Of a stretch of 64,000 bases of DNA, positions 16,918 to 43,831 are shown piece by piece; position 1 is the stretch's first letter; each line of letters starts with the position of its first letter. The notes under the pieces are model-generated. The model did no database searches and was not told the origin of the DNA. It saw nothing but the letters and a program-made list of their open reading frames with translations. The stretch lies in IMG/VR virus record IMGVR_UViG_3300047476_001238, positions 15,712 through 79,711 of that record; one strand, 5' to 3'. The translations under genes and the position numbers were made by a program. Source of the DNA: a virus. Its lineage: Duplodnaviria; Heunggongvirae; Uroviricota; Caudoviricetes.

Positions 16918-17609
16918 TATAGTTTTCCTCGTTCTTTAGTTAGGAAAGTCTGCAATGCAGGAGTGACTTTTCTTGTGGTACCAAACGGATGGAACTCACC
17001 GTAATCATCCATTTCGAATCTTTTACCTTTGTACTGAATAACCAAAGGAACAGATTGTACTATTGATACATCAGGATGTAATGGTTCTGTTATAGATGGC
17101 TCCCCAACAGGCCCTTCATCACCAGGCATTACAATAGAAGAATCTGTAGTTCCTGGTTCTGCACTGGTGTCGTTATTACGTGGATCAAAAGTAAGTTGTC
17201 CATTTTGTTGTGCTAGATTTTCCAATGATGCTACAGATTGCGGGTCTACTATTTCCGATCCTTCGCTGTTTGCCCAAAAACCAGTTTTGTCTTTAGAATT
17301 TGGTTTAGCGGAATATTTGAAGTATCTACGACCGTCTTTGGTTTGAACTACCAACATTCTACCCGGTGGTACTCGATAACGTTTGATTTTCTCTTTCCTG
17401 TCATCGGTTGGCGCCTTTACCCATTGACTACCCGAGTCCGCACCCAGTCTGTCAGCTACTCCTTGCAGCATGTTTGTGAATGATCTGGGATTATTTTCAG
17501 TATTACCTGTATATTCTCCAGTTTCCGGATCTCGTTCATAATCTGTACCAAATTGATCTCTACGGCGTCTAGTTCCAAACGCTTCACTTACAATATCTCT
17601 AATCTTCAC
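16917..17609 (-). CDS. hypothetical late protein (230 aa), charged/Pro-rich
   Basis: Part of the late operon downstream of TATAAATA at 17866-17873. Confidence 0.5.
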   Translation of the reverse strand: MKIRDIVSEAFGTRRRRDQFGTDYERDPETGEYTGNTENNPRSFTNMLQGVADRLGADSGSQWVKAPTDDRKEKIKRYRVPPGRMLVVQTKDGRRYFKYSAKPNSKDKTGFWANSEGSEIVDPQSVASLENLAQQNGQLTFDPRNNDTSAEPGTTDSSIVMPGDEGPVGEPSITEPLHPDVSIVQSVPLVIQYKGKRFEMDDYGEFHPFGTTRKVTPALQTFLTKERGKL

Positions 17610-17847
17610 GCCTAAATCTCCTTACGCCGCGAGCAAATTTAGCAGGATCTTGGGCTCTAATACTATTGAGCAATCTACGCTCCAATTCAGCTGATTGTTC
17701 TGCATCATAGTTTTCTTTGATATAATTGATCAGATTGATAGCACCTTGTATCACATGGCTAGCACGACTTTCCACAAGATTTTCCCGATCTCGACTGACG
17801 GGCATGTGGGCTAATTCATCAAGAATACTGCGAGTACGCTTTTGCAA
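17599..17847 (-). CDS. hypothetical protein (82 aa), first gene of the late operon (TTG start)
   Basis: TTG start with a GGAG RBS and TATAAATA 20 nt upstream. Confidence 0.4.
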   Translation of the reverse strand: MQKRTRSILDELAHMPVSRDRENLVESRASHVIQGAINLINYIKENYDAEQSAELERRLLNSIRAQDPAKFARGVRRFRRED

Positions 17848-17865: not shown

Positions 17866-17873
17866 TATTTATA
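17866..17873 (-). promoter_or_regulatory. T4-type late promoter TATAAATA driving the 82/230/247/370-aa late operon
   Basis: Exact octamer about 20 nt upstream of the TTG start. Confidence 0.5.
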
Positions 17874-19032
17874 TTATAGAAGTTAATACTTCTTTCCACT
17901 CAGCATGCGTTTTTTCAAATTTAGTACTTCTTAAATTATCAAATTTATCAATTTGATCTAAGAATTTTTGGTGGGAAAATTCTTCTCGTATGGGTATCGA
18001 TTTAAGTAGCTGTAATAACATCGGATAGTCGGCGAACTTATTTCTTAATATATTATATTGGGTTTTATCCAAAAACTCTAATCTAAAATCATGCAGACCA
18101 GGATAAGGCAGTACCTTTTGAAAAATTAAATTTACAGGATCACCTAATCTATTTTCTTTGAGATTCATTTTATGCCAGTCAACCAATTGATCAAGATAAT
18201 AAAAATTCAAGTAGCTGTATACACAATTAACTTTAAACATATGATTAACCGGCATATTTTCTTTGTACCAAGTTAAATTCTCTGTTATTCTTTCCCAAGA
18301 AACCCCCGGTCTCTGATACTCGAATCTTTGTTCTATATCGTCAATACTAAAATATAATTCTACTAATCTACATTCAGACCACAAATTCAAAATTTCATCA
18401 GAAACTCGTACAGTTCCATTGGTGTTATAAAACACATGAACATCAGACAATCCCTTGACTTTTTTAATATTTTTTAAAAAAGTGATATGACTATCACTTA
18501 ACAATGGTTCGCCGCCACCGTGAAAATGCACATTGCGAATATTTTGTAGCTGATTGTCGGTTATTTCAATTTGATTATTTTTTTGATATTTGAATTTTGT
18601 TGCATCAGCTTCGGGAAATAATTTTTGATAGTCAGGCACCCAAGATGAACTATTACCGGGATTGCACACTAAACATTTTAAATTACACAAATTTCCAACG
18701 CTGTAGTCAATGCTAATCGGTCCGGGTGAATTGGTGTCAGAATCATTAAAAAAATTTTCATACAATTCAACCACACCTTGACGCCTACTTGTTAACCCCA
18801 ACGCTTCATCATTATAACAATTAATACATCCAGGAACTTTTTGATCTGATTCTATTAATTTTTTTATTCCGATATGCTTTTTGTTATTCCAAACTTTGGC
18901 TATGCTAATATTATCGTCTGTTCCTATATCACCAGTGTAAAAAGAACAAGGAGTATATTTGATTCTTCCGTTATGGGACCATATGGCCAAATTTTTATAC
19001 ACTTCATAACAAAAGTATTTGTTCTTTTTCAT
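17869..19032 (-). CDS. radical SAM enzyme with a SPASM/twitch-like C-terminal domain (paralog 1)
   Basis: CNLKCLVC (Cx3Cx2C) and a GGGEP SAM-binding motif, with additional Cys pairs N- and C-terminal. Similar layout to the ORF at 61470-62747. Confidence 0.8.
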   Translation of the reverse strand: MKKNKYFCYEVYKNLAIWSHNGRIKYTPCSFYTGDIGTDDNISIAKVWNNKKHIGIKKLIESDQKVPGCINCYNDEALGLTSRRQGVVELYENFFNDSDTNSPGPISIDYSVGNLCNLKCLVCNPGNSSSWVPDYQKLFPEADATKFKYQKNNQIEITDNQLQNIRNVHFHGGGEPLLSDSHITFLKNIKKVKGLSDVHVFYNTNGTVRVSDEILNLWSECRLVELYFSIDDIEQRFEYQRPGVSWERITENLTWYKENMPVNHMFKVNCVYSYLNFYYLDQLVDWHKMNLKENRLGDPVNLIFQKVLPYPGLHDFRLEFLDKTQYNILRNKFADYPMLLQLLKSIPIREEFSHQKFLDQIDKFDNLRSTKFEKTHAEWKEVLTSII

Positions 19033-19037: not shown

Positions 19038-20501
19038 TTATTCGGTTTTAGTTTTTAAGCTGGCAAGCATTTGTTTCAATTTTGTGCTATCTACATTGGC
19101 CTGTACTTTGCTTTCGATGTCAAATCCCGGCTTTGGTGTAGCTTTAATAAAGGGTGCAGCACCTGCACCTTCAGTTGTGGTAGTGCTTTTGGCTTTGATT
19201 TGATTCATTATGCTACCAGGCGCACTTGGACCACCAGGACGCCCATACCCGATTGTACCAGCCTCAGCTGCATCTTCACCAGGGTCAGTGATACGCATGG
19301 TTTCAATGTTGTATTCTAGATCTACTTTTTGACCCACACCGGTACTGCTTCGACTTTTCATACACTGGATTTGATAGCGTCCGCGCTCGCGCATGGCACG
19401 ACTTGTAAAAATACCAAACACATTATCTGCTGTGTTAATTTTACTGATACCACCTGAAATGTGACTGTGATCAAATTCAATTTCGTCAACTGCGCCTCGG
19501 TTCAGCTGACTTGCAGTGACCATGAGCACCCCCAATTCTTTACTCAAATTACGCAGTTCTTCTGATACATATTTGTCTTTCACAAACAAATCATTGGGAC
19601 TAACTTTGGCACTCACAGGCATCAGCAGATCTAAATAGTCGATCATCATAAAGTCAATTTTGCGCCCTGTTTGGATTTGGTATTCTTTTAGGAATGCTCT
19701 GATATCGTTGATATTGCTTTGTGCAGGCAATGCTTTGACTTGATAAGTGCCAGACTTTTTACCAACCATTTTAATTTTAAGTGCCGCGGTATCTTTGTCT
19801 TTGCGTATGTCTTTGGTACTCATGTTGGTCAACATGGCCGCTGTACGCAAACCTGTTAATTCTTGACTGAGTTCTAGTGTGATATAAACTCCATGAAGTC
19901 CTTGTTGTACCCAGTTAAGGGCAATGTTCATCATGACCAAGCTTTTACCTGAGCCCGATCCGCCAGCAAAAATATTAAGCTCACCTCTACTGAAACCACC
20001 ATACAACAGTTTGTCTACCTGTGGCCAGCCTGTGCTAACTTGCCCACCTGAATCAAAATATCTAGTAATCATGCCAGACGGATCTTCCCAGAAGTCCATG
20101 CCTAGATCTTTGGTAAGACTGATTTGTACAGCATCTTTGATTAGTTTTTCCACAGGATCAAAGTCGCCTTTTTCAATCATGTCTGCTGCTTGCAGAATAG
20201 CTCGTTCAAGTTCTTGTTTACGACTGAATCCTTCAAATTCTTTTAAAAACCAATCGTAGTGACCTTCTTTAAGGTCAGGAACTTCCCTGAGCTCTACACC
20301 TGTTGCTGCTTGAATCTGTTCTTTAGTAGGCAACGTTTTGTGATCATCGCTGTGTTTTTTGATAAACTTTGCAGCTTCTCTAAGACTGCGATCAAAATTT
20401 TCTGCATTGTAAATGTTCTGCACACGCACATATACTTCTGCGTCTTGCAGCATCATCTCCAGGAAAAGTTTTTGTATGTCGGGATTATAATCTTTTGTCA
20501 T
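19038..20501 (-). CDS. 41: DnaB-like replicative DNA helicase (T4 gp41 type)
   Basis: 487 aa with Walker A GGSGSGKS and DnaB-family H2-H4 motifs (IDYLDLL, TASQLNR). Confidence 0.88.
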   Translation of the reverse strand: MTKDYNPDIQKLFLEMMLQDAEVYVRVQNIYNAENFDRSLREAAKFIKKHSDDHKTLPTKEQIQAATGVELREVPDLKEGHYDWFLKEFEGFSRKQELERAILQAADMIEKGDFDPVEKLIKDAVQISLTKDLGMDFWEDPSGMITRYFDSGGQVSTGWPQVDKLLYGGFSRGELNIFAGGSGSGKSLVMMNIALNWVQQGLHGVYITLELSQELTGLRTAAMLTNMSTKDIRKDKDTAALKIKMVGKKSGTYQVKALPAQSNINDIRAFLKEYQIQTGRKIDFMMIDYLDLLMPVSAKVSPNDLFVKDKYVSEELRNLSKELGVLMVTASQLNRGAVDEIEFDHSHISGGISKINTADNVFGIFTSRAMRERGRYQIQCMKSRSSTGVGQKVDLEYNIETMRITDPGEDAAEAGTIGYGRPGGPSAPGSIMNQIKAKSTTTTEGAGAAPFIKATPKPGFDIESKVQANVDSTKLKQMLASLKTKTE

Positions 20502-21451
20502 GACTTGGGACAGTTAAATGTACAAGCTTTTGGCTTGATTGTTTCGATATTGTTGTAAAAATCTTTTAAATTGTTGATAACTTGCGATAACGTTGTTTTA
20601 CTTATTGCAAATTTTTCTTTTTGTTTATAAAAATCACTCTCGTAATAGAATCTATGATCGCCCATCCAGCAACAGGGCAAATAAAAACCCGAAGCTGAAA
20701 TGAAATGCATAGAATGAGTAATTTTGCAAACAGGGTTTATGTCATTTTTGTTGTTGCTGTTTTTCCATTGTATGATACTATCATTTCGATTTCCATCAAA
20801 GCTGCCGTTAGACAGTATTCCAGTTTCTGTTTTATAACCGGTATCAACGTATCGTTTAGGATTCAACCAATCGTTAACATCGTCCCAACGATCACTATTG
20901 TTTAAAACAAACTCGTTGATTCCTAAATTTTTGCTCAACTGTTGAGCTGTTTCGATGTCATTGATATTATAACTAAACACAATAAATTTCCAAACAGTCT
21001 TTGCTCGACTCTTGGTCATTATGCTTATACCACGTTCAATGCTGGGCCAATCTGCATTTACTCTATACTGTGTAAAATTCTCAGGAACGCCATCAATGCT
21101 GAAATTCACAACATCTGTTTCGTCAAGAATTTCTGCCAGTTGCTCCCAGGTTGCATTGCTGGCGTAGCTGCCGTTTGTGGTAATAATTATATTGCATCCT
21201 GCAGATTTAAAATATTTTATCAATGGAATTAGGTCAGGGTAATACAGTGGATCTCCGTAATTTCCATTCAATGCAACGAGCTTTCCTTTAAGATCTATAT
21301 CTAAAAAATTTTTTAGATCTTCAAAATTTAAATTTAAATTTTTCCATTTTTTTGGAAACTTTTTAATAAACTCTGTTCGCGAACATCGCGGGCATTTTAA
21401 GGTGCAAATGTTAGTTGGTTCAAGATGAATGCCACGAATAGATTCAAGCAT
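20498..21451 (-). CDS. radical SAM enzyme with a SPASM/twitch-like domain
   Basis: N-terminal CTLKCPRC (Cx3Cx2C) at residue 16, and a C-terminal Cys cluster (C..CC..C..C). Lies between the helicase and primase genes. Confidence 0.8.
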   Translation of the reverse strand: MLESIRGIHLEPTNICTLKCPRCSRTEFIKKFPKKWKNLNLNFEDLKNFLDIDLKGKLVALNGNYGDPLYYPDLIPLIKYFKSAGCNIIITTNGSYASNATWEQLAEILDETDVVNFSIDGVPENFTQYRVNADWPSIERGISIMTKSRAKTVWKFIVFSYNINDIETAQQLSKNLGINEFVLNNSDRWDDVNDWLNPKRYVDTGYKTETGILSNGSFDGNRNDSIIQWKNSNNKNDINPVCKITHSMHFISASGFYLPCCWMGDHRFYYESDFYKQKEKFAISKTTLSQVINNLKDFYNNIETIKPKACTFNCPKS

Positions 21452-22469
21452 ATAACTTTTTCTTCTTTAACTCTATTTTAAGTCGACTAGTTTCTCTCGC
21501 TGCCAGAATACATTTAAGCACAAACAATTTGCCGTATTTGACTACTGCTTCATTGATGTCTTTGCAGGTCTCCTGCCAGACTGGAAAACTCACAGTCCAC
21601 CCTGCTTCTATTGCGCGGTCAACCAGCTTCTTACCTGCTCGGTCTGAATCAGGAACTACAATGACTTCTCGTTGCAATCTATCAATTTGATCAACTTGTA
21701 TGTCGGATATTTCTGCTCCGTTAAGTGCAACTCCGTCTATGCTCATTGCATCAAATGGTCCTTCGCACACAATAACAAACTTATTATCAGGCTTTTGATT
21801 GTCTAAGTTAAACACAAAGTCTGCTGGATGACTGCTCCAATACTTGGGCTTGATACCATCTGTAATTGCTCGGCTTGTATAGCCTACTGTTTCGCCACGA
21901 TAACGGAAAGGGATGATTATCCTACGATGTAGGTTATACGCTTCTTCGGGTGTCCAATAAAATTCGTATCGGTTTATGTCAATGGATCTACGATGTACGT
22001 ATTCGATAGCAGCAAGTAGTTCGGCTGGTACATTGTTATAATCGCCAATGCTGTAAAAGTTGGCAAGTTCGACCACGTTCTTTGCCTGTTCAGGCAACGA
22101 TCTTGCTTCATACGCAATCTCTTGCTCGGGTTCTTTGGCTAATTCTTCAGGCGCAACTAATTCTCTGAGTCTGACTGCATCAATAACCAATCTCCGGACA
22201 GTTAGGTCGTCGGCACCTAACCAAGCAAGCAACTTTCTAAACTTAAAAGTTAAATGTCTGCCGGGAACAAAACTGGCTTTAAAGCCGCAATTGAAGCAAT
22301 GATAGCTTACAGCACCTGCATTGGTTTTAACCCCGCCACGCCCTCTAGTGTCAGCAGTTTCACCATTATGTACACAGCACGGAGCATTGAAACTGGTCCA
22401 GCCATTCTGACCCGTTTTTTTACGGGCAGGAAGCAGTTGAAGGACAGAATCTTGAATAGTAGTCAGCAT
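21444..22469 (-). CDS. 61: DNA primase (T4 gp61 type)
   Basis: Zinc-ribbon CCVHNG...HCFNCG followed by a TOPRIM block VIVCEGPFDAMS and DSDRAGKK. The start could instead be the TTG at 22499. Confidence 0.82.
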   Translation of the reverse strand: MLTTIQDSVLQLLPARKKTGQNGWTSFNAPCCVHNGETADTRGRGGVKTNAGAVSYHCFNCGFKASFVPGRHLTFKFRKLLAWLGADDLTVRRLVIDAVRLRELVAPEELAKEPEQEIAYEARSLPEQAKNVVELANFYSIGDYNNVPAELLAAIEYVHRRSIDINRYEFYWTPEEAYNLHRRIIIPFRYRGETVGYTSRAITDGIKPKYWSSHPADFVFNLDNQKPDNKFVIVCEGPFDAMSIDGVALNGAEISDIQVDQIDRLQREVIVVPDSDRAGKKLVDRAIEAGWTVSFPVWQETCKDINEAVVKYGKLFVLKCILAARETSRLKIELKKKKLYA

Positions 22470-22550
22470 CCTAGTATTATATACTAAAACACACAACAAC
22501 TCAAATAATTTATAGGTTTGTTATTCGATTTTAAATGTTTCAAAAGACTG

Positions 22551-23018: not shown

Positions 23019-23396
23019 ATGGTCGAACCTGATTACACAGAATTATTAAAAAAATATCCGTTCTTGACTTACCTTGTGTATGGCGGCAACGAGTATATAG
23101 GAGTTATCCAAAACCTAGACGAAGTAATTACTACTATATACGACTACGGCGCCTTAAAAACCCTAGATCAAAAACAGCAGTTTTTAGAGCTTGCAGAAAT
23201 GTGGTGGTGGGAAAGTAATAGGTTAATACCAATAAACGTGTTCTTGAAACAGGAGTGGACTCCGTTTAGAAGCGTTGTTAAAACAATGAACAGCAAAGAT
23301 GTGGAAATCAAGTTTGGCCCGCAAGTGAGCCTTAAAGAAATTGCTGCCAAACGCAGCAAACGTAGATCAATTACACTGGTACGTAAAGTGGGTTAG
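23019..23396 (+). CDS. hypothetical protein (about 125 aa), rare plus-strand gene
   Basis: Fills an otherwise non-coding 390 bp gap and has a protein-like composition. The start is uncertain (TTG at 22986 or ATG at 23019). Confidence 0.35.
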   Translation: MVEPDYTELLKKYPFLTYLVYGGNEYIGVIQNLDEVITTIYDYGALKTLDQKQQFLELAEMWWWESNRLIPINVFLKQEWTPFRSVVKTMNSKDVEIKFGPQVSLKEIAAKRSKRRSITLVRKVG

Positions 23397-23986
23397 AGAT
23401 ATTCTGCGCTGATTTGTTCGCAGATCAAGTTCATGTTAACAGCAACCAAGTGTGCGTATCCCACAGCATGAGCTTTCTTAAAGTAGTATTCATCACCGTC
23501 CGGGCGCTCCCAAACAGTTTCTGCTACTTCGCGCCAAGTCCGACCAATCAAATGCCGTTTGGCAGGTCTTATAACTGCAAGAAACATAGCCAGTCTTGGA
23601 ATTGTGTTAACAGGCTCGGGCATTCGAACCAGTGTGTCGTAATGTGACCCAATGTGTATCAACTGACTGCAAAAGTCTCGGTCTAGCAGTAAATCCCAAA
23701 GCGGATCCTGACTCATCAAATGCTGCAAATGCTGTTCATTTTTAATCTGAGAATATAACCCAACATTAAGAACGTCTACTTTTACGTAGCCACGCTCTTC
23801 AGCTGCTTCATAATCCAAACTTGCCCGACCAGTAAAAGGATCCACTGGAACGGGTGTAAAGTACACACCAGTATTGTGTTTGGTGATTTTACCGTCGCGT
23901 ATGATACTTGCTGCGGTATGATCAAGCACTGCAAGTGCCTGATCTCTATCAGCTACATCAATATCAATGTCCGACTTAAATTTCAT
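23393..23986 (-). CDS. hypothetical protein (197 aa)
   Basis: ORF coupled to the upstream gene (23983-23986 overlap). Confidence 0.5.
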   Translation of the reverse strand: MKFKSDIDIDVADRDQALAVLDHTAASIIRDGKITKHNTGVYFTPVPVDPFTGRASLDYEAAEERGYVKVDVLNVGLYSQIKNEQHLQHLMSQDPLWDLLLDRDFCSQLIHIGSHYDTLVRMPEPVNTIPRLAMFLAVIRPAKRHLIGRTWREVAETVWERPDGDEYYFKKAHAVGYAHLVAVNMNLICEQISAEYL

Positions 23987-24663
23987 AGCCCGGCTTCCTG
24001 AAGAACATGTTTACACCACTCTGCATCAGCTACGTAATCCGAGAACTTACGATTCCAATAATCAGGATCAATCCAAGGAATAATAATGGCCAAAAGCCCC
24101 TCGTCAAGAGACTCGAGAAACTCAATACCGCTAGCACAATTAAACACAATCCAAGGACTAATGCGACCAGTGGTAATATGATGACAAATCCTATTATGAT
24201 TCCCGTACTTAAAATAATGGCTGTAAGTAGCAAGGCCACTGTCTCCATTGGCGTATTCCTCCATGGTTTTGAGTCCACGCTCGAGTGCATCCTGGACTGC
24301 TTCCTTTTTAAGATATTCATGTAGCCATTCCTCGTAAAAACTATCCTTGCACCAATAGTCTAATTTCTTATTATTTTTTAATAGCCATTCTGTAAAACTC
24401 GTGCTATTAACACAGCGAATAGCAACCATGTATCTACCGAACCGAACAAAAGCATTGTAATAGGGACTTGCAACAAAGTCATGATAGCTTTTGAGCCGTG
24501 CGCTGCCTTGTGTGGTTTCATAAAATTTTAAATATGCTCTGAGCCCAAACTGTACTCCTGTTTCAGATTCTTGTTGCCAGCGTCTTTTGGTTTCACACAG
24601 ATGTGCTGTTAGTGTACTTTCTTTTCTAAATTCTTTATCACAATATTTACACTTGTAGCTCAT
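23983..24663 (-). CDS. C2H2 zinc-finger-containing protein (226 aa)
   Basis: N-terminal CKYCDKEFRKESTLTAHLC classical C2H2 finger. Confidence 0.5.
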   Translation of the reverse strand: MSYKCKYCDKEFRKESTLTAHLCETKRRWQQESETGVQFGLRAYLKFYETTQGSARLKSYHDFVASPYYNAFVRFGRYMVAIRCVNSTSFTEWLLKNNKKLDYWCKDSFYEEWLHEYLKKEAVQDALERGLKTMEEYANGDSGLATYSHYFKYGNHNRICHHITTGRISPWIVFNCASGIEFLESLDEGLLAIIIPWIDPDYWNRKFSDYVADAEWCKHVLQEAGL

Positions 24664-25216: not shown

Positions 25217-25485
25217 ACCGGATGATGGAAAAGTGGGTCTTCTTGTTTGCTTAACTCGTATATAATTTTAACACGTTCCAGTGCATCTTGTAAAGCAGGA
25301 TTATGCTCGGCTGCTTCCAGTATTGGAATCCAAGCGTCTGATAATTCCATTCTACGTTGTTGAATATCTAGTGCGTAATCTTCGCCAATTAACACTCGCT
25401 CGGAATCGCCAACTTTGCGAGCATATATTCTAGGGCCATCACGCTCGTATATATAAGTGGCACCCGGTTCTAGTTGACTTGTCAT
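25213..25485 (-). CDS. hypothetical protein (90 aa)
   Basis: Coupled ORF. Confidence 0.4.
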   Translation of the reverse strand: MTSQLEPGATYIYERDGPRIYARKVGDSERVLIGEDYALDIQQRRMELSDAWIPILEAAEHNPALQDALERVKIIYELSKQEDPLFHHPV

Positions 25486-26102
25486 GAAAAAAATACCTGT
25501 ATGCTATGTCTGCAACTCAATCCAATCAAATCATCAACAGCGGATACTGGTGTCACCGAGTGTTGATACATTGCAGGAAAAATTACCAATCTATCATTTA
25601 CACATTCTATCACAGTTGTTTCCGTTCGTTGTTCTTGATAAAGCCCGTTGCTCAATTCAAAATCGCCTCCAACAAATTGTTTAGGTGTTTGGTAGCAGAA
25701 ATAATTCCAAGTCACATGCCCGCCGCCATCGGTATGCCATTTATAAAAATCAGCAGTCTGATATCTACTTAAAACCATATTGTAGTTTCTTGATTGTGAC
25801 CCAACAAAATGATCTAGTTCTGGCATCTGGGCAACTGCTTGCGCTATATCAGCATGAAAAAACTTTTCTGTAAAAAAAGCCATTATTCCCAAGGTGTCAT
25901 TATCAAATGTATCCAACCACAAGTTTAGATTTTTTCTAAATCCGTGATCAATCCTTCGCACTCCATGATCAATAATTTCTGCATCAATCATTTTATCCTC
26001 AACAGCCGATATCATATTCAATATGCGGCTGTTGTTTTTTGCGCCCAGAAAATTGTCAATCACAATGTGGGGTACTGGTTTAGAGAAACAATTTATTTGC
26101 AT
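25482..26102 (-). CDS. 2OG-Fe(II) oxygenase superfamily protein
   Basis: HTDGGG (HxD) iron-binding motif followed by a distal H (AMYQHSV), with prolyl-hydroxylase-like spacing. Confidence 0.7.
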   Translation of the reverse strand: MQINCFSKPVPHIVIDNFLGAKNNSRILNMISAVEDKMIDAEIIDHGVRRIDHGFRKNLNLWLDTFDNDTLGIMAFFTEKFFHADIAQAVAQMPELDHFVGSQSRNYNMVLSRYQTADFYKWHTDGGGHVTWNYFCYQTPKQFVGGDFELSNGLYQEQRTETTVIECVNDRLVIFPAMYQHSVTPVSAVDDLIGLSCRHSIQVFFS

Positions 26103-26662
26103 GATAAAAAACTTCTAGCTCTATCTGTTATTATATACCTGCCGGTAAGTCTGTCTTGAAAATCTTCAATTACACTTTTGTGTATTGGCAAGTCATCAAG
26201 ACTGTATTCTTGAGCAGTAAATTCATCTGTTGCATTAAATGTACTAGCGAAATAGATTTGCGGGAAATCAACCTTGGACACTATATCATAAAGCAACTTG
26301 TGATGTATATGACCGTAGTCTCCGTCTTGATTGTGTGTTAGTACTAATACTGGCTGTACAGTATTGATTACTCGATGAACATTTTGCTCTGCGTCCGCAG
26401 GATTCCAAAAATTAAACTGTTGCGTTTGTTGATCTTGGTAGTCATCTACAAATCCTAGAAATTCGCAGGTGACATTTCTTTGTGACCAAAAATTTTCAAC
26501 TTCTTGAGCTCGAGGATCTATTTTGGTGTAGGTAAGATACGCAATGTGCCAATCAAAATTTGAATAATGTTCAATCAAAGGTAAAGCAAATATAATGCAA
26601 TCGTCTGGGTGTGCAACAACTGCTAATGCTTTACCAGCACTTGGCATAATCAACCACTTCAC
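26093..26662 (-). CDS. LmbE/PIG-L-like (GlcNAc) deacetylase family protein
   Basis: N-terminal VVAHPDDCIIF matches the (A)HPDD(E) zinc-binding motif. A downstream H..DH cluster is present. Confidence 0.55.
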   Translation of the reverse strand: MKWLIMPSAGKALAVVAHPDDCIIFALPLIEHYSNFDWHIAYLTYTKIDPRAQEVENFWSQRNVTCEFLGFVDDYQDQQTQQFNFWNPADAEQNVHRVINTVQPVLVLTHNQDGDYGHIHHKLLYDIVSKVDFPQIYFASTFNATDEFTAQEYSLDDLPIHKSVIEDFQDRLTGRYIITDRARSFLSCK

Positions 26663-27134
26663 TTTGTCTGGATATGTCTTTTACAAAATAAGCGCACAAG
26701 GGTTTTTCAACACCAGATTCTAACGGAATGGCCAACAGTTGTCCAGGTTTGAGTTTAGGAAAATACCATTTGACGTCTTGATAAATGTCTACAATTTCAA
26801 TTTGTGCAAACTCAGGCCTAAAACTGCTCAGTGGGTTAAAACAATATACACTGAATCCTCGATCGTTGATACTGGTTAACGGAACCACTTCGAGATCGCC
26901 TAGATCCGGTTCACCAATTAATACATGCCAATCCACTGGCATTTTAATTACGTTTTCCCCAATACGTAAAACCAGGGCCGGGCTGTTAAAGCTTTCTAAA
27001 AAAATTAAGGGAATATAAAAATAATCTGGGGTACGAGGATCTGAATTATCAAGTACTGCAAATCTTAAATCTTCTACTTCGTCGGGTATTTCGTTTAGCT
27101 CGTAGGCTGTGTTTTCTAGTGTTAGTATTCTCAT
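26631..27134 (-). CDS. hypothetical protein (about 167 aa)
   Basis: Start set at the ATG overlapping the upstream stop (TAATG). The longer ORF would overlap by 43 nt. Confidence 0.4.
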   Translation of the reverse strand: MRILTLENTAYELNEIPDEVEDLRFAVLDNSDPRTPDYFYIPLIFLESFNSPALVLRIGENVIKMPVDWHVLIGEPDLGDLEVVPLTSINDRGFSVYCFNPLSSFRPEFAQIEIVDIYQDVKWYFPKLKPGQLLAIPLESGVEKPLCAYFVKDISRQSEVVDYAKCW

Positions 27135-28072
27135 TAGTATTTTAATCTCCATCCAGTGATTGAGTGGTCGTACCACATTTCTAAATCTGTGTCAGGTTTT
27201 TTAACATGTGGCAAAATTGTTTTTGCAGGATTGCCCCACCATGTTTCAGTGACTGGCATTACAATATCATCGTACATGTTTGCTCTCCAAAATAACACTA
27301 CAACAAATGTATTTGGCGGTATCTTGTTGGCCGGTACAGTGATACGAATATCATTAATGTCAGTTGTTCCGTTCAAGTCAATATTCAAAGGTTCACTCTG
27401 ATACAGTTTTTTTAATTTTAAATCTGTAAATCTAGGCAACATAGTAAACAAATTCTGCACGTAGCCGGCGCGATACACAGTTGAGTCTAGTGGATGCTGT
27501 GCCTGAAACGAGTCATTGATAATTTTTTCAAATGCAGGATCAATATCAATGTCGGGCTGAAATTCAAAGGCGCCAGATTCGGGCATAACCAACGGGAAGA
27601 TTGGATGATCATCGTAAATTTCCACCCATAGATCAAAGCTTCCAGGTATAAACTGTCCCCCATGCCTTGTAGCATGTTGTGCTATTGCAATGATATCTTC
27701 ATTGAAGACCGGAGTTCCAATTGTTTCTGATACAAAAATGTCAGCATGTATGTCTGTATCAAAAAAGTTTTTGTGAATCACTTCAATCTGATCAGACAGC
27801 CCGACCTGCTGAATAATTTTTCTAGCAAAGTCGGCTCTACCTGGATCCATCTCAACGCTGTACACTTTTTTGGCACCAGCTTTGGCCGCTAGGATGCTCA
27901 ATAGTCCTGTGCCTGTTCCAATATCACAAACAACTTTGCCTGGAACTGCGGCTTCAATTGCTCGTTTGTAATACACGTTGCGACCAGTGTCGTTGATCAT
28001 GGGCATGTAAATGCCGTTGTGTTTAAACCAATCAAAATCCTCTTCAGAGTTTGTAATTGTATTATCTGTCAT
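27134..28072 (-). CDS. protein arginine N-methyltransferase (PRMT)-like SAM methyltransferase
   Basis: Motif I VVCDIGTGTGLLSILAAKAGAKKVYSVE, a double-E-like loop FVSETIGT, and motif III-like HGGQFIP. Confidence 0.7.
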   Translation of the reverse strand: MTDNTITNSEEDFDWFKHNGIYMPMINDTGRNVYYKRAIEAAVPGKVVCDIGTGTGLLSILAAKAGAKKVYSVEMDPGRADFARKIIQQVGLSDQIEVIHKNFFDTDIHADIFVSETIGTPVFNEDIIAIAQHATRHGGQFIPGSFDLWVEIYDDHPIFPLVMPESGAFEFQPDIDIDPAFEKIINDSFQAQHPLDSTVYRAGYVQNLFTMLPRFTDLKLKKLYQSEPLNIDLNGTTDINDIRITVPANKIPPNTFVVVLFWRANMYDDIVMPVTETWWGNPAKTILPHVKKPDTDLEMWYDHSITGWRLKY

Positions 28073-28871
28073 AATGTTTGTTTATAAGTTCGTAGTATCT
28101 GTTTGCAAGGTATTCTTGACTGGCTTCGCTACCGTGATAGCCAGGATCTTCGCCTGCAAAGGGGTATGCATTAGTAGCGTATGCCGGAGTATCTTCGTAT
28201 CGTAAAGTAAAGCAACGGTCTGGAATAGCAGAAGGAAATGCTTCTCGAACAGTATTGCTGGTCCATATATTACAGGCTACCAATAAGAATGGTATATTGG
28301 CATGATGCAATCTAAAAACGCCATCACTGATCAACCATCTGTCTTGCTGTAGTTTCCAGTTGCTGTCGTAAAGAAAATTTACATACTGCTTGACTGCATC
28401 TTGTGTGTGACGGTCTAGCTTGGACGAGCGATAGTGATGATCGTAATTTTCAGCGAGGCTAAAGATAGTTTCTGAAATCATTCTGTACGGATTGTTGCCA
28501 AAATTGATATTGTCAACTCCGACCGCCGGGTCGTATCCTATGCCGTGATTCTCTTGCAGGTGTTTTTGCAGATCGCTGTTCCACCCTTTGTTTTCATTCT
28601 TGGGAGGAACATATGGTGCTGCACCTGCTGGTATTTCCATACGGTCATGAAATGTAGGAGCAACAATAGCAAAGTCTGGTCGCTGTCGAACAATCTCATC
28701 AATCATAACTCTAATGCCGCCATTGCTCATGCCTTGGCGAGCTAGATGTACTAGGTCCCAATCTAATTTAGCAGCCAGTTTTTCTCCCCAACTGGTACCT
28801 TTTAATTCAGGCCGAGTGCTAGGTGCGCTAAAACTGCACCCAGTGATCATTATTTTTTTTCTCATTGCCAA
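28062..28871 (-). CDS. SGNH/GDSL-hydrolase-like protein
   Basis: N-terminal IMITGCSFSA resembles the GDS(L) block I. Confidence is low. Confidence 0.4.
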   Translation of the reverse strand: MAMRKKIMITGCSFSAPSTRPELKGTSWGEKLAAKLDWDLVHLARQGMSNGGIRVMIDEIVRQRPDFAIVAPTFHDRMEIPAGAAPYVPPKNENKGWNSDLQKHLQENHGIGYDPAVGVDNINFGNNPYRMISETIFSLAENYDHHYRSSKLDRHTQDAVKQYVNFLYDSNWKLQQDRWLISDGVFRLHHANIPFLLVACNIWTSNTVREAFPSAIPDRCFTLRYEDTPAYATNAYPFAGEDPGYHGSEASQEYLANRYYELINKHYDR

Positions 28872-30316
28872 TCAGCCTTTTCAACTGTGAAAGGATAGTT
28901 AGCCTCTTTGTAAAAGGCTTTTCTTTTTGTTAAATGTCGTTTTGCGAACTTACAGGTGGATGTGATATCCCAGATTTGGACGAAGTCTTTGTCCTCAGCT
29001 TTGCGAATACCTCGACCAATGCTTTGTATAACTCTGACAAAAGATTTGCCAGGCTCAAGTAAAACAAGATTAAAAATGCGGGGAATATTGATACCAACAG
29101 CAGCAACGCCATAAGTGGCGATGATGATTTTGTCGGATACTTCGGCCACCTCATCATAGTGCTCTTTACGCTCCCCAGCTTTAGTGGCACCAGAAACAAA
29201 AACACTATTTGGCAATCTACTAGCTAACGCTCGGCCGGCACTTATTCTATCTACTAGAATAAGAGTATTTCCAGTATCAACAATTGTACTTATCAATTGT
29301 GCTATATAGTCCAGTCTTTCGCTGGTTTCTATTAGATATTTTAGCTCGCTTTGATAGTTTGTGTACTCTTTGTTATCCACTAGCTGCACAACATTAACAT
29401 GACATTGTGCTAGGTGCCCGGCTTCCTGTAGCTCGCTGGCGCTCAACTGTCCCACTACTGGACCCAGCATGCAGAAAATACTTTGTCTAGCATAATCTTC
29501 TTTGGGAATTGTGCCTGTGAGTCCCCAGCGAATAGGCACTTGAGCGAACGGACCCGACAATAATGTTTTAAGTGCATCGGCTTTGGCTTGATGTGTTTCG
29601 TCTACAATAACCGCAACTACACCTTCTAAGAATTCGCCAATAGTAATATCGGCTTCGTGATTTTTTGTGTTCTTGAGCAGATTGTTTAGGCTTTGCCAGG
29701 TACAGATAGTATGTGTTCTATTGTATTCTTTTCTGTCGCCAAAATACACACCCACATCCAATTGCATGTTAACAAAGTCATCTTCGGTCTGTGTGACCAA
29801 GCTCTTGTTGGGTACAATCACAATACTACGACCATATGCACTCACTCCGTCGGCCAAGGCCGCAGTGATTACAGTTTTACCTGCACCTGTTGCTACTTCT
29901 TGTACACACTGCGGATTGGCAAAGAATCTATTGATAATTTCGGGCTGATAGTCACGCATGACCATGGGCTCGCCAGCTTTGGGATGACCTTTAGGCCACT
30001 TGATATGGCTGTAGCTTTGTTCGTTAACTTCAGCAAATTCAAATGTGGTACGATACTCTCTTGCATCTTCAACTTCAATATCATAACCTTGTTCGTCCAA
30101 GTACGGAAGTATTTCGGGCAGCAAATTGATATAAGTGGTTCCGCCAAGATTGAAGAACGGTACCTTGCCGTCCCAACGGCCAAGACGAACGCTAGGTTGA
30201 TACCTAGCGCCGGGTATTTCGTATTTGTATTTTTTAACTAGAGCTGTTCGAGTGTTTAACTCTAGCCCTTCAATTTTTACATTGACTTCGTCGCGGATTA
30301 TTAGTTTGGCTTGCAT
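28862..30316 (-). CDS. uvsW: UvsW-type SF2 DNA helicase
   Basis: ATGAGKT Walker A, VDETH (DExH) and the helicase C motifs QSIGRGIR. Size is about 480 aa. Confidence 0.82.
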   Translation of the reverse strand: MQAKLIIRDEVNVKIEGLELNTRTALVKKYKYEIPGARYQPSVRLGRWDGKVPFFNLGGTTYINLLPEILPYLDEQGYDIEVEDAREYRTTFEFAEVNEQSYSHIKWPKGHPKAGEPMVMRDYQPEIINRFFANPQCVQEVATGAGKTVITAALADGVSAYGRSIVIVPNKSLVTQTEDDFVNMQLDVGVYFGDRKEYNRTHTICTWQSLNNLLKNTKNHEADITIGEFLEGVVAVIVDETHQAKADALKTLLSGPFAQVPIRWGLTGTIPKEDYARQSIFCMLGPVVGQLSASELQEAGHLAQCHVNVVQLVDNKEYTNYQSELKYLIETSERLDYIAQLISTIVDTGNTLILVDRISAGRALASRLPNSVFVSGATKAGERKEHYDEVAEVSDKIIIATYGVAAVGINIPRIFNLVLLEPGKSFVRVIQSIGRGIRKAEDKDFVQIWDITSTCKFAKRHLTKRKAFYKEANYPFTVEKADWQ

Positions 30317-31476
30317 TAACTTGGTTTAGTTTTTTTATTATTATAAACTTCTGTTGCGAAGTACACAACCTTTTCGGCTCGTTGCAGCAACAAAGTTTTT
30401 TCCCCGCCATGCATCATGCCTTGTCCACTAACAAGCAAAGGAATAGGTTGATCCCATGCGGTCATATACTTATTAAAGTAAATTACTTTTTTATGCACAG
30501 TGGGAATCTCTTTTTTAAGATCTTTGGCTTGATAAATGTCGTCGGGATCAAAGTACCGTGATACAAAATTTTTGTAGAGACGTCCGCTTAGATCCGGCTC
30601 GTATACATATATCGGAAATCGTCCAGTGACCTGAGCATAATCAATCAAGTCTGTGTAAATGCTGTCATCGCTGTCAGGTCTAAACTTGGATTCTTGGGCT
30701 GTCATTAAATTACAAATTCTAGCATTGTGCCGTGTTGCTGTATCATCCAAGATTGATTGATCTACGGTGTATCCATATATGGCAGAATTATCAACTAGTG
30801 TATCAACATTGCTGGAATCAAACCCGCAGTAATTGCGGATGGCATCAATTAAACTGCTTGATGCGTTTTGTATTTCGAGACCTGCTTCTGTCTTAATCAG
30901 TTTGATTGCATAAGGAGTTTGTTCACAGCGAACAACTTCTTGTAAGAGAGATAAGAATTCTTCACCAATTTCAAATTCGTGATTTGCGGCAAATCCGTTT
31001 GCTGCCACAACATTGACCTCGGTGATAGCCAAGCGCCAAGCTCGAGCATTGCTGTCAAATGCCCAAGTGCCTTGACTGATCTTGGCAAGGTCTCGCAAGT
31101 CATCAATCAGTTTTGTATCATACGGAAACTTTAAAACGATATGATCGTTTTCAACATACAGCAGCTTCCTACGATCAATTGTTCGTATGCCGTGTCTGTA
31201 TTGCGGAGTTCGTATTGGATCAATACTGATCTCTAATTTTTCCAACTGCTTTTGATACTTTTGTATTATCTTTACTGCCAACTCGGCTTGTCGATCAGTC
31301 AATGCCCGACCGCTTTGTGTAGCTGCGCTCATACTGGCCAACACTTGCACATCGTATCGAGCCAAACTAACAATTGGTTGAGTGCTATCAAACAGTCCGT
31401 AAATTTTACCCGTGTTCGGATCACGGTCGCCGTTGATAACTTCTAGATAATCTTCAACATAGGTAAATGTTTTCAT
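30316..31476 (-). CDS. hypothetical protein (about 386 aa)
   Basis: Start set at MKTF because a perfect TTGACT-N17-TATAAT promoter lies within the longer ORF extension. Confidence 0.5.
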   Translation of the reverse strand: MKTFTYVEDYLEVINGDRDPNTGKIYGLFDSTQPIVSLARYDVQVLASMSAATQSGRALTDRQAELAVKIIQKYQKQLEKLEISIDPIRTPQYRHGIRTIDRRKLLYVENDHIVLKFPYDTKLIDDLRDLAKISQGTWAFDSNARAWRLAITEVNVVAANGFAANHEFEIGEEFLSLLQEVVRCEQTPYAIKLIKTEAGLEIQNASSSLIDAIRNYCGFDSSNVDTLVDNSAIYGYTVDQSILDDTATRHNARICNLMTAQESKFRPDSDDSIYTDLIDYAQVTGRFPIYVYEPDLSGRLYKNFVSRYFDPDDIYQAKDLKKEIPTVHKKVIYFNKYMTAWDQPIPLLVSGQGMMHGGEKTLLLQRAEKVVYFATEVYNNKKTKPS

Positions 31477-31482
31477 AAGAAT

Positions 31483-31511
31483 ATTATAGCATATAACAAA
31501 ATCAAAGTCAA
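31483..31511 (-). promoter_or_regulatory. sigma70-like early promoter (TTGACT-N17-TATAAT), leaderless-type
   Basis: Read directly from the sequence. The -10 ends 6 nt before the ATG at 31476. Confidence 0.6.
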
Positions 31512-31580
31512 AAAAATGCCCCACCGAAGCAGGGCAAAGAACCGAAGTAAAAGGAGCTAACAAAAACTTCGGGTAAAACC

Positions 31581-32384
31581 TTATTTGTTTAACATTAGGC
31601 CAGTGAAGTTGCTAGGAACCACAATGGTCTGCACTCGTCCACTCTTGATACCTTCACTGATATTGAGCATGGCCTGTGCCTGCATAAACGCAATTGAACT
31701 AGAACTGTTGTTGGCCAGTGCTGCCATACGGCGTGATTCGGCTTCAGCAGTTTTAACTTCAACTTCTTTCTGCTTGAGTTCGTTCTTGGCACGAACAAGA
31801 GCGTTGGCACTTTCAACTACACTGTCAGCTGGCACAACATTACGGATCAGGACCTGGCTGATAGTAATCGAACCGTCAAGTTTTTCGTCGGCAAGATTCT
31901 TTTGAATTTCTTCTTGGATAAACTTTTCCATATCCGAACGGTTGTCTGCCATGTCCAGTGCTTCATACTTACGTGCAGCCTTGTAAATAGCATTACGGGC
32001 ATTTTGCACAACATAATTGTACATCACATAAGTGTCGCCACGGAACTCAGCATGAAAGGCCTTGTTCTTGGTCGAATACAGTTCTGCTACACTCTGAGGA
32101 TTAATATTATAAACGACCACGGCATCAAGGTCCTTCATGGTACTGTTGTCTTTGGCTACCGGAGTCATGTTCTCTAGCACCACGTTGACATCTTTGATTG
32201 GGAATGTGAGCACATCGCCAATAATGGTTTGATTAAAACTACCTGGCAGTAGTTCGCCTTGTTGGATCTGCTTATCAAAGCCAATACGCACACCAACTTC
32301 GCCGGTTTCAACACGAGTACACCCGGTACTCATAACAGCAGCAGCAACAAGAGTAAGAACAGAAAGACTAGCAATACGTTTCAT
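31581..32384 (-). CDS. SPFH/band-7 (stomatin/prohibitin-like) lipoprotein
   Basis: Signal peptide with lipobox MKRIASLSVLTLVAAAVMSTGC and an SPFH-like core with a C-terminal Ala/Glu coiled segment. AAGGAA RBS upstream. Confidence 0.7.
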   Translation of the reverse strand: MKRIASLSVLTLVAAAVMSTGCTRVETGEVGVRIGFDKQIQQGELLPGSFNQTIIGDVLTFPIKDVNVVLENMTPVAKDNSTMKDLDAVVVYNINPQSVAELYSTKNKAFHAEFRGDTYVMYNYVVQNARNAIYKAARKYEALDMADNRSDMEKFIQEEIQKNLADEKLDGSITISQVLIRNVVPADSVVESANALVRAKNELKQKEVEVKTAEAESRRMAALANNSSSSIAFMQAQAMLNISEGIKSGRVQTIVVPSNFTGLMLNK

Positions 32385-32495
32385 TTTATTTCCTTTTAAA
32401 AAACTGTTATCGAGCAACTAGTATTATTACTGCTAATCCAAATGCCAGCAAAGGGTGCCCGGCGAATATCAGGAATAATACTACCAACCAGGCCA

Positions 32496-35972: not shown

Positions 35973-36758
35973 TCAACCACCAAAAGTTTGTTGCAATTTT
36001 GTTAAGTCTGCACAAGTATAGGTTTGGTAGCTATACTCCAGGTGCTTGGGAAACGGAATTTGTTCAATTAAGGCACCGTATTGATTGGCTTTTTCTTGAG
36101 CGACATCTAGGAACGATCGTGTTTGGCCTGTTCCAATATTCCATACACCACTTTCTTCGATGTCACAATTTATAAATTGAAATTGTACGCCTAGCACTTG
36201 GTCCACAGGAACAAAGTCTCTTTTAAAATTTTCGCTTCCTTCAAACACTTTTATAATTCCAGTGGATTGTGCCTGAACAGCAAATTGATACTGAGGGCTA
36301 GCTTGTGTTCCTTTGTGCATTTCGTTTGCACCATACACATTAAAGTATCTAAATCCTTGGCACCGAACATGCGTCGGATTCTTTTCAACATAGTGTTCGA
36401 ATAGATATTTTGACCACGCATACGGGCTGCGAGGATCCACGGGTGCGGATTCTCTAAAATCTGTGCCAAGGCCATACACGCTCGCTGAGCTTGACCATTG
36501 AAGATTAACATCATGTTTCCTACATTCCTCGTATAACCAAATAGAGAAGTCTACATTTTGGCGCATGACTTTGGCAACATCACGTTCTGTAGTGCTACTA
36601 ATAGCACCAAAATGAAATACCCAATCCAGGCCTTCAATTCTAGGTAGAACACGCTCATCCCACTCGTATGTGTAGATTTCATGGACTCCCATCTTTTGCC
36701 AAAAACTTACAGCATGACTGCCGATGAAGCCTCTACTTCCTGTTATTAATATTTTCAA
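35973..36758 (-). CDS. hldD: ADP-L-glycero-D-manno-heptose 6-epimerase
   Basis: Colinear with E. coli HldD/RfaD: ITGSRGFIGSH, SSSASVYG, YAWSK, FRYFNVYG...KVFEGSENFKRDFV. Confidence 0.85.
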   Translation of the reverse strand: MKILITGSRGFIGSHAVSFWQKMGVHEIYTYEWDERVLPRIEGLDWVFHFGAISSTTERDVAKVMRQNVDFSIWLYEECRKHDVNLQWSSSASVYGLGTDFRESAPVDPRSPYAWSKYLFEHYVEKNPTHVRCQGFRYFNVYGANEMHKGTQASPQYQFAVQAQSTGIIKVFEGSENFKRDFVPVDQVLGVQFQFINCDIEESGVWNIGTGQTRSFLDVAQEKANQYGALIEQIPFPKHLEYSYQTYTCADLTKLQQTFGG

Positions 36759-37137
36759 TTATTTTACTCGTTGAATAATTTTGTACTAGTGGATAGTATT
36801 TAATGTCGCCACAATATTCAGATCCTGTGATCTTTTTGCCTTGGTAATCTGATCCTTTAATCATTAGATCTGGTTTGTAAAGTTTACAAATATGTTCCAG
36901 TTCCTGTTGTGTGTCAAAAATCCATACTGCATCCACACACTTTAGGTTATCCAATGCAAACTTACGATCTTCTTGATTATTAATTGGTCTTGATGGGCCT
37001 TTTAACTCGCGCACACTACGGTCGCTGTCAATACATACCAATAGATAGGTACCTTGACTACGTGCAAAGTTAAGCATTTCGATATGCCCGCGATGCAGTA
37101 TATCAAAAGTACCGTTAACGATTACTCTTCTATTCAT
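36733..37137 (-). CDS. hldC: D-beta-D-heptose 1-phosphate adenylyltransferase (HldE domain II / HldC)
   Basis: 134 aa cytidylyltransferase-fold protein with GTFDILHRGH (HxGH) and a downstream KGSDY. Confidence 0.78.
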   Translation of the reverse strand: MNRRVIVNGTFDILHRGHIEMLNFARSQGTYLLVCIDSDRSVRELKGPSRPINNQEDRKFALDNLKCVDAVWIFDTQQELEHICKLYKPDLMIKGSDYQGKKITGSEYCGDIKYYPLVQNYSTSKIIENINNRK

Positions 37138-41840: not shown

Positions 41841-41841
41841 A

Positions 41842-43595: not shown

Positions 43596-43625
43596 GAATC
43601 CTCAGTAATTGTTGAATAAATGTAT

Positions 43626-43775: not shown

Positions 43776-43831
43776 ATCATTCCTTGAGGTTATTGACATG
43801 CTATTTTAATAAATTAAACAAGAAAAGTCAA

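Follow-up and report, generated by a model that had tools for sequence, protein, structure and literature searches.

An uncultured jumbo phage of the Phosso, PA5oct, Atu_ph07 and Rak2 type encodes, on the minus strand at positions 27134–28072 of the window (the whole 64,000-nucleotide stretch of DNA that we analysed), an enzyme that consists of one module and belongs to the protein arginine methyltransferase (PRMT) family; by sequence and predicted structure it has the full architecture of eukaryotic PRMTs. PRMTs are central regulators in eukaryotes and barely known in bacteria, the family is regarded as essentially eukaryotic, and as far as our searches show none has been described in phages. 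We favor, with moderate confidence, an account in which the enzyme carries out PRMT-type arginine methylation from a gene at an insertion hotspot, with its enzyme-encoding neighbors belonging to separate modules. With a compact PRMT carried by more than 100 viral contigs, arginine methylation would join the means by which phages modify host proteins after translation; if the account is true, phage biology would gain its first arginine-methylation system, and prokaryotic viruses a PRMT lineage of their own, which would inform the question of how the family arose.

The sequence-only reading had called the 312-amino-acid product PRMT-like, naming in advance a better alignment to small-molecule or rRNA methyltransferases as the outcome that would count against this assignment; in our comparisons the protein aligned best to PRMTs. 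The best 60 phmmer matches in the PDB were all PRMTs, and the corresponding profile matched PRMT7 at 2e-27 and PRMT9 at about 3e-22. Using hhalign, the family aligned to a PRMT7-like protein with a probability of 98.9% over residues 22–155, an alignment that ends at residue 155 and leaves the barrel and THW loop outside. The AF2 model (pLDDT 87) retrieved PRMTs as all of its best 50 Foldseek matches, with about 330 aligned columns and E values of about 1e-18. In this model a Rossmann domain is followed by a C-terminal beta-barrel with an arm-like helical insertion, as in PRMTs; the barrel is seen in the predicted structure only, not in the sequence.

The motifs told the same story at the residue level. 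Motif I (VVCDIGTGTGLLS) and post-I (VEMD) mark a SAM-binding Rossmann fold, with D50, G52, G54, G56 and E74 unchanged across 25 diverse members of the family and matched in alignments with PRMT7, PRMT8 and PRMT9. Upstream of these lies the PRMT-specific N-terminal helix motif, P24-M25-I-N27-D28-T-G-R31-N32-V-Y-Y35, in which M25, N27, D28, R31, N32 and Y35 were invariant in the same number of sequences and in register with the same three PRMTs. In the M-L-x-D-x-x-R-x-x-x-Y helix of PRMTs, the Arg binds the SAM carboxylate. The double-E loop of PRMTs clamps the substrate guanidinium, and its two substrate glutamates, which had been singled out for checking, were both invariant in the 25 family members: the phage loop reads S-E116-T-I-G-T-P-V-F-N-E125, with its glutamates nine positions apart, and aligns with SEWMGYCLFYE of PRMT8 and TELFDTELIGE of PRMT7. 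Most of the PRMT motifs were kept also in more distant viral relatives. Near the C terminus we found a putative counterpart of the THW loop, T277-W-W279-G, matched by position and pattern rather than by residue-level structural alignment. Across the phage family this loop reads T-[W/I/M/L]-[W/F], with the His missing. Its Trp was kept in 10 of the 11 sequences of a wider viral set, and the His position was occupied in distant relatives by H, C, S or T, such that only some have His. PRMT5 likewise lacks the THW His (FSW). For mechanistic work, a phage PRMT would offer a minimal scaffold whose THW loop varies naturally.

The family was found on 117 IMG/VR contigs and in 233 metagenomic clusters, several of them on contigs of 300–380 kb. 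The expectation that PRMT homologs would be very rare in phages was borne out among cultured phages, with no tblastn match in 50,697 phage records and none in PHROGs. A pattern scan of GTDB genomes, using patterns specific to the family, confirmed no relatives; the annotation names of intermediate metagenomic relatives included none that was informative, and a literature search for phage, prokaryotic or giant-virus PRMTs returned nothing relevant.

Turning to the locus, the four ORFs that had been read as consecutive coupled genes are all real and all on the minus strand, but a fifth gene among them, phrog_11279 (26631–27134; 167 amino acids; phrog_11279 E value 6e-46), had been missed. Starting from the upstream anchor of the insertion site, a UvsW-like DNA helicase (28862–30316, minus strand; identity 54% with the helicase of Sinorhizobium phage Phosso and 51% with that of PA5oct), the five tightly coupled minus-strand genes encode an SGNH/GDSL-like hydrolase, the methyltransferase, phrog_11279, a PIG-L/LmbE-family deacetylase and a 2OG-Fe(II) oxygenase. 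Every junction overlaps, by 1 to about 20 nucleotides. For the SGNH-like gene, the probable start is ATG 28865 (within an ORF first read as 28062–28871), where ATGA overlaps the UvsW stop; phrog_11279 starts at ATG 27134, with a TAATG overlap at the methyltransferase stop; and the PIG-L gene likely starts at TTG 26653 or ATG 26647. Such coupling is common to the whole minus-strand block and is not peculiar to the enzyme genes. Conservation in 85 related loci shows that these genes are not chance ORFs, and megablast of the region against phages gave zero matches. A tRNA scan of the window found none, and promoter and terminator matches in it were no commoner than in shuffled sequence; a promoter-like site at ~31.5 kb and a terminator-like one at ~23.35 kb might conceivably bound a transcription unit.

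In all 85 loci the methyltransferase gene lies between UvsW and phrog_11279, with UvsW upstream wherever the upstream sequence suffices. Records of cultured jumbo phages with phrog_11279 number 89; in those that list both positions (Phosso, PA5oct, GAP32 and CBB) it follows the UvsW-like helicase immediately downstream, and across the related loci it is 67–100% identical. We considered it as a member of the enzyme set and rejected it, as cultured relatives without the methyltransferase carry it as a backbone gene. The UvsW/phrog_11279 junction, which in relatives holds other, unrelated accessory genes, is an accessory-gene hotspot in this environmental clade, and the methyltransferase is its constant occupant. 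More distant viral PRMT-like genes occur in quite different gene contexts, in one case between two RNR subunits.

We propose that during infection the methyltransferase most likely uses SAM to methylate arginine side chains in at least one protein of the host or phage, its gene being probably co-transcribed with replication genes. Bacterial arginine methylation is poorly documented, which speaks against the proposal. More tentatively, and with less than even confidence, we suggest that this widespread uncultured jumbo-phage clade, and other large phages with more distant copies, may use a PRMT-type enzyme to methylate arginines of host proteins. The targets might belong to transcription, translation or defense, or might be the phage's own proteins; methylation of host proteins, if true, would amount to a host-takeover or anti-defense modification. 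A proposed parallel is the arginine ADP-ribosylation performed by Alt and Mod of phage T4. Against the PRMT account stand also the missing THW His, the detection of the barrel by model only, and the lack of a Gly/Arg-rich candidate substrate in the window, among whose ORFs a search for RGG-, RG- or RxR-rich proteins turned up nothing convincing.

An unlikely alternative is that the PRMT fold serves a non-protein acceptor: a guanidino or amino group on some small compound, a modified nucleotide, or an aminosugar that PIG-L would first deacetylate and the methyltransferase then N-methylate. Such an acceptor would fit the two probable sugar-deacetylating enzymes that flank the methyltransferase in most loci, the many sugar-nucleotide and glycan genes of the window, the departure from THW, and the location of the gene inside a DNA replication module, together with the distant copy among the RNR genes. 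However, the methyltransferase is kept in 15 loci without PIG-L and the orthologous SGNH-like gene and occurs in unrelated contexts in other phages, and both of the guanidinium-clamping glutamates are invariant.

The PIG-L/LmbE-family protein (26093–26662, minus strand; about 184–189 amino acids) is a predicted zinc deacetylase, as had been suggested from its AHPDD motif: it matched Pfam PIG-L (PF02585; 2.4e-14) at 54.4 bits against a cut-off of 28.2, and its sequence VVAHPDDC aligned, together with a second motif, to AHPDD and GYGHPDH of MshB. A17-H18-P19-D20-D21 and D113-G-D-Y-G-H118-x-H120-H121 were invariant in 53 unique homologs, so that by sequence the zinc ligands and catalytic Asp appear to be in place. 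The proposal that Cys replaces Glu at the metal site did not hold, as the Cys after AHPDD occupies a non-conserved position, which the alignment to MshB does not place among the metal ligands. Because its scores against the NCBIfam equivalogs fell far below the cut-offs (MshB 20.8/224, BshB1 12.6/182.5 and Mca 12.3/277 bits), the protein is not an ortholog of MshB, BshB or Mca. Tblastn against phages yielded five weak matches only; in Xanthomonas phage PhiXhv-12, a PIG-L homolog lies between GlmS and a glycosyltransferase.

The SGNH-like protein (28062–28865, minus strand; 267–269 amino acids) had zero sequence-family matches in Pfam, PHROGs or NCBIfam and no tblastn match in phages, yet its structural model matched SGNH/GDSL hydrolases, in line with its first description as GDSL-like and pointing to a probable SGNH fold. 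Its putative nucleophile motif is G-C-S13-F-S, and across the family S13 was invariant in G-[CD]-S, as were G47 and N50 in ARQG-x-SNGG and H246 with D242 (in D242-P-G-Y-H246, spacing DxxxH); no canonical GxND follows strand 3. A conserved insertion of about 55 residues (78–133) was modelled at low confidence. The SGNH-like and PIG-L genes occur together in 66 of the 66 evaluable loci of one subclade and are absent from 15 of 15 in the other, which is weak evidence of shared function because one gain or loss event suffices to explain it. We suggest that they form a separate co-varying pair that probably removes O- and N-linked acetyl groups, presumably from an acetylated (amino)sugar, and that may have a connection with the window's large complement of glycan genes (36–44 kb and 50–60 kb).

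The remaining enzyme (25482–26102, minus strand; 206 amino acids) is, as first read, a prolyl-hydroxylase-like (P4H-type) 2OG-Fe(II) oxygenase: it matched Pfam 2OG-FeII_Oxy_3 (PF13640; 4e-9) at 37.7 bits against a cut-off of 27 and phrog_61 at 1.3e-11, and its HxD...H triad is intact, with H123-T-D125 and H181 conserved in 8 sequences; phmmer against the PDB gave spurious beta-glucosidase matches only. The gene occurs in only seven of the 85 loci (L006–L012), which are the closest relatives, and is a recently and independently acquired accessory gene. A different 2OG oxygenase, of the PhyH type, adjoins the methyltransferase in the distant locus L072.

That the four enzymes tailor a single substrate in one pathway, as their description as one functional cluster implied, is very unlikely. 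Their genes do lie side by side on one strand with translational coupling, and the PhyH-type oxygenase beside the methyltransferase in L072 also counts in favor of this reading. Their phyletic patterns nevertheless differ, with the 2OG gene in 7/85 loci and the methyltransferase without the SGNH-like and PIG-L genes in 15/85; phrog_11279, a backbone gene, stands between them, and PIG-L switches side relative to it between loci; in one locus (L037) PIG-L has decayed to a split pseudogene while the methyltransferase and SGNH-like genes are intact; and the same junction in relatives holds unrelated accessory genes. The lesson is that translationally coupled neighbors at a phage insertion hotspot need not make a pathway.

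Also very unlikely is a role for the enzyme as a generic RNA/DNA methyltransferase or as a PrmA-like protein methyltransferase acting on lysine or alpha-amino groups, as annotation would have it (best Pfam match PrmA at 4.9e-10, with no Pfam model matched beyond Rossmann-domain methyltransferase families; NCBIfam prmA and an archaeal protein-lysine methyltransferase; PADLOC mad2 at 3.9e-16, PADLOC matches being Rossmann-level or generic only; 'predicted RNA methylase' from JGI and also 'PrmA' in source annotations), since all of these matches are confined to the Rossmann core (residues about 41–142), the NCBIfam score is far under its curated cut-off (37.7 vs 183 bits), and neither the PRMT-specific N-terminal motif nor the double-E loop varies.

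Compared with known systems, the phage PRMT is closest to the eukaryotic PRMTs, above all PRMT7 of Trypanosoma brucei and the N-terminal modules of PRMT7 and PRMT9, with which it has in common the predicted Rossmann and beta-barrel domains, the MxNDxxRNxxY helix (MINDTGRNVYY in the phage enzyme, MLNDTKRNTIY in PRMT9), motif I DIGTGTG, the post-I Glu, the Thr and Trp of the putative THW-loop counterpart, and a double-E loop in which S-E-T-x(7)-E aligns to [T]-E-[LT]-x(7)-E of PRMT7/9. It differs in being bacteriophage-encoded, in being a single 312-amino-acid module where PRMT7 and PRMT9 are tandem duplications, in the replacement of the THW His by W, I, M or L, in the reduction of YFxxY to [DE]-F-D-W-F (absent in the shortest family members), and in a barrel that is not detectable by sequence. 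With PrmA, the ribosomal protein L11 methyltransferase, it has in common the class I Rossmann SAM-binding core. The PIG-L protein falls with the LmbE/PIG-L zinc deacetylases (MshB, BshB and GlcNAc-PI de-N-acetylase), its AHPDD and HxxH-type motifs aligning with the catalytic Asp and the three metal ligands (His, Asp, His) of MshB, but is far shorter (about 185 amino acids vs 303 for MshB). Relative to SGNH/GDSL esterases (CE2 and CE3 acetyl-xylan esterases and GDSL lipases), the SGNH-like protein has GCS in place of GDS in most members, DxxxH rather than DxxH, and APTFHDR at the site where the fold would be expected to have the canonical block III GxND. The 2OG protein is an ordinary member of the P4H-type accessory genes of phages (phrog_61 and phrog_81), from which it shows no notable difference.

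The methyltransferase gene at 27134-28072 on the minus strand encodes a 312-amino-acid protein that is a PRMT-family enzyme, which bears out the sequence-only reading of it as PRMT-like with a double-E loop. When we searched all PDB sequences using phmmer, the top 60 matches were exclusively PRMTs, led by PRMT7 (4.5e-21) and followed by PRMT1, 2, 3, 6, 8, 9 and CARM1; with a 25-member family profile PRMT7 improved to 2e-27 (PRMT9, ~3e-22), and hhalign of the family against a vertebrate PRMT7-like protein returned 98.9% probability over residues 22-155. Small-molecule and rRNA methyltransferases lacking the double-E loop did not align better. Invariant positions in the family alignment include the PRMT-specific helix (M25, N27, D28, R31, N32 and Y35), motif I (D50, G52, G54 and G56), the post-I E74, and both double-E glutamates (E116 and E125). 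The THW-loop position, matched by location and pattern rather than by residue-level structural alignment, reads T-[W/I/M/L]-[W/F] across the family and T277-W-W279 in the window protein; of the 11 sequences in a broader viral set, 10 keep the Trp, and the His is confined to certain distant relatives. AlphaFold2 gave a confident model (pLDDT 87, pTM 0.83), and all top 50 Foldseek matches in the PDB were PRMTs, with ~330 aligned columns, indicating that the likeness takes in the beta-barrel and not only the Rossmann core.

Metagenomes yielded 233 cluster-level homologues; several of these lie on contigs of 300-380 kb, and one on a 369.6 kb NCBI 'uncultured Caudovirales phage'. In IMG/VR, a relative is encoded on 117 contigs. 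We found no tblastn match among 50,697 deposited phage genomes, no PHROG that covers the protein, and no confirmed relative when GTDB genomes were scanned with family-specific patterns. An exhaustive profile search gave 29 representatives at E ≤ 1e-30, past which came a continuum of 300-345-amino-acid metagenomic proteins (1e-25 to 1e-33) and then two-module proteins of 640-860 amino acids, one of them apparently a vertebrate PRMT7. Two of the intermediate 300-345-amino-acid proteins were traced to phage-like contigs (L087, 8001-9005, and L086, 8001-8957); of these two more distant single-module genes, one is inserted between those for the large and small subunits of ribonucleotide reductase, and the other, on a 132-kb contig, adjoins genes for a trypsin-PDZ protease and a dCMP deaminase. 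Large uncultured phages of several groups thus carry single-module PRMT-like enzymes, in unrelated contexts.

The four enzyme genes originally proposed are all present, but the minus strand of 25482-28871 holds five genes rather than four: those for an SGNH-like protein (28062-28871, 269 amino acids), the methyltransferase, an overlooked phrog_11279 protein (listed as 26631-27176, 181 amino acids), a PIG-L/LmbE-like protein (26093-26662, 189 amino acids) and a 2OG-Fe(II) oxygenase (25482-26102, 206 amino acids). Judging from the junctions, ATG 28865 is the most likely start of the SGNH-like gene and overlaps the upstream helicase stop codon as ATGA; the phrog_11279 gene starts at ATG 27134 (167 amino acids), where it overlaps the stop of the methyltransferase gene as TAATG, and its end overlaps the deacetylase start by ~20 nucleotides. 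The other junctions overlap by 4-11 nucleotides, so coupling is tight throughout. However, almost all genes in the first ~51 kb of the window lie on the minus strand with the same packing, and coupling alone therefore does not mark out these genes. A near-consensus promoter-like TTGACT-17-TATAAT (31511-31483) comes immediately after a terminator-like hairpin (31536-31517); both fall inside the listed start of ORF 30316-31563, which therefore probably begins at a Met further downstream. Another terminator-like site (23341-23359) directly follows gene 23393-23986. The sites at 31483-31539 and 23341-23359 may bound the transcription unit that holds the five genes. Conserved across related loci, the flanks comprise a Band_7/SPFH-domain protein gene (31581-32417) and a gene for a 226-amino-acid protein with an N-terminal C2H2-type zinc-finger match (23983-24663).

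The enzyme genes are insertions at a junction of the phage backbone. The upstream gene (28862-30316) encodes a UvsW-like helicase with 54% identity to that of Sinorhizobium phage Phosso and ~51% to that of PA5oct, and the 167-amino-acid protein matches phrog_11279 (6e-46), to which PHROGs assigns no function. Found in 89 cultured jumbo phages, phrog_11279 lies just downstream of the helicase gene wherever both positions are listed (Phosso, PA5oct, GAP32 and CBB), and tblastn found the methyltransferase in none of these cultured phages; phrog_11279 is therefore a backbone gene. We mapped the window proteins onto 85 related loci, many of them near-duplicates. The methyltransferase gene lies between the UvsW and phrog_11279 genes in all 85. 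The SGNH-like and PIG-L genes are present together in one subclade (66/66 loci with enough flank) and both missing from the other (15/15, six of which carry only a distant SGNH-like paralogue). With so many near-duplicate loci, and a pattern that one gain or loss would explain, this co-variation is only weak evidence that the two act together. The 2OG oxygenase gene is confined to the closest relatives, which make up 7 of the 85 loci and have methyltransferase identities of ≥ 87%. The side of phrog_11279 on which the PIG-L gene sits varies by lineage, and in one locus (L037, 6160-6755) that gene is in two fragments, likely a pseudogene, beside intact SGNH-like and methyltransferase genes. Relatives hold other accessory genes at this junction, among them genes for a Methyltransf_24-like protein, a PhyH-type 2OG oxygenase, further SGNH-like paralogues and several proteins of no known function. 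The PhyH-type gene (L072, 2851-3516), just downstream of the methyltransferase gene in a distant relative and unrelated to the window 2OG gene, makes a second, independent case of a 2OG oxygenase paired with this methyltransferase. Many loci (L006, 3718-4395; L020-L022; L032/L033, 4425-5207; L035/L036; L063; L070; L078-L083) have, between UvsW and the methyltransferase, a second and divergent SGNH-like paralogue with a canonical GDSF and 22-29% identity to the 269-amino-acid protein.

The 269-amino-acid protein had no match in Pfam, PHROGs or NCBIfam. Its family is strongly conserved (mean identity 76%), with invariant G-x-S13, G47, S49, N50 and D242-P-G-Y-H246. The model is moderate (pLDDT 71; residues 78-133 unreliable), and the SGNH fold is supported for this putative hydrolase. 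The Pfam matches over cut-off confirmed the LmbE-like and 2OG oxygenase calls (PIG-L, 54.4 bits against 28.2; 2OG-FeII_Oxy_3, 37.7 bits against 27, plus a phrog_61 match), the latter protein carrying H123-x-D125 and H181. AHPDD and H118, H120 and H121 are invariant across 53 unique PIG-L homologues, whereas the Cys flagged earlier occupies a non-conserved position; scores against the NCBIfam MshB, BshB and Mca equivalogs were far under the cut-offs. Homologues in cultured phages are limited to Xanthomonas and Erwinia jumbo phages, and in the annotated PhiXhv-12 record the gene is flanked by those for GlmS and a glycosyltransferase. Given this context and the window's large sugar-nucleotide and glycan gene set, our best guess at the substrate of both putative hydrolases is an acetylated (amino)sugar.

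Glycan genes include a cluster at 35973-44464 (two NAD-dependent epimerases/dehydratases, a PfkB-type sugar kinase, a GT9 heptosyltransferase-like protein and a Methyltransf_13/14 NDP-hexose C-methyltransferase) that looks like a pathway for ADP-heptose or a deoxysugar, along with its transferase. Others lie at 50273-55366 and 59244-60790, among them genes for a GT17 glycosyltransferase, a further methyltransferase and a cytidylyltransferase-cupin fusion; on the plus strand, an island (51700-55366) encodes an epimerase, an FkbM methyltransferase, a TPP-enzyme fragment and a GDP-mannose-dehydratase-like protein. At 44804-50101 the phage carries host-like genes for envelope and uptake functions (phosphate-selective porin O/P, E 6e-51; a PstS-like phosphate-binding protein; an outer-membrane beta-barrel protein; a TctA transporter subunit), which suggest that the host is Gram-negative and that phosphate is limiting. 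Spread among replication genes such as those for DnaB (19038-20501) and primase (21444-22499) are four radical SAM enzymes, of which one has a B12-binding domain, and a SPASM-domain protein (9332-11056, 17869-19032, 20498-21451, 56629-57477 and 61470-62747); for a single stretch of 64 kb this density is unusually high. The window's only arginine-rich protein is encoded by an 82-amino-acid ORF at 17599-17847 (15.9% arginine, three RxR motifs).

By analogy with known PRMTs, the methyltransferase most likely methylates arginine in host or phage proteins: SAM would be bound via motif I, E74 and R31, and the guanidinium would be gripped between E116 and E125. The enzyme might alternatively act on a non-protein acceptor, such as an amine uncovered by the neighboring deacetylase, but its retention in loci without the deacetylase weakens this idea. 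In Pfam many Rossmann methyltransferase models match residues ~40-145, PrmA best of all (4.9e-10); a PrmA-like or nucleic-acid methyltransferase is contradicted by the full-length PRMT fold match. A single pathway of all four enzymes is contradicted by their differing phyletic patterns across the 85 loci, and we have downgraded the interpretation of the genes as a cluster.

In alignment with MshB, the PIG-L protein matches at AHPDD and at GYGHPDH (GDYGHIHH in the phage version). The 269-amino-acid family departs from canonical SGNH/GDSL proteins in having mostly GCS for GDS, a DxxxH spacing and no GxND block. A full-text literature search, its coverage too incomplete to prove absence, returned no report of a PRMT from a phage or prokaryotic virus. 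The helix motif of the methyltransferase has its counterpart in MLNDTKRNTIY of PRMT9, and the double-E loop is in exact register with SEWMGYCLFYE of PRMT8 and TELFDTELIGE of PRMT7, whereas the His of the signature THW is altered; we regard the lineage as a compact viral PRMT with an altered THW loop.
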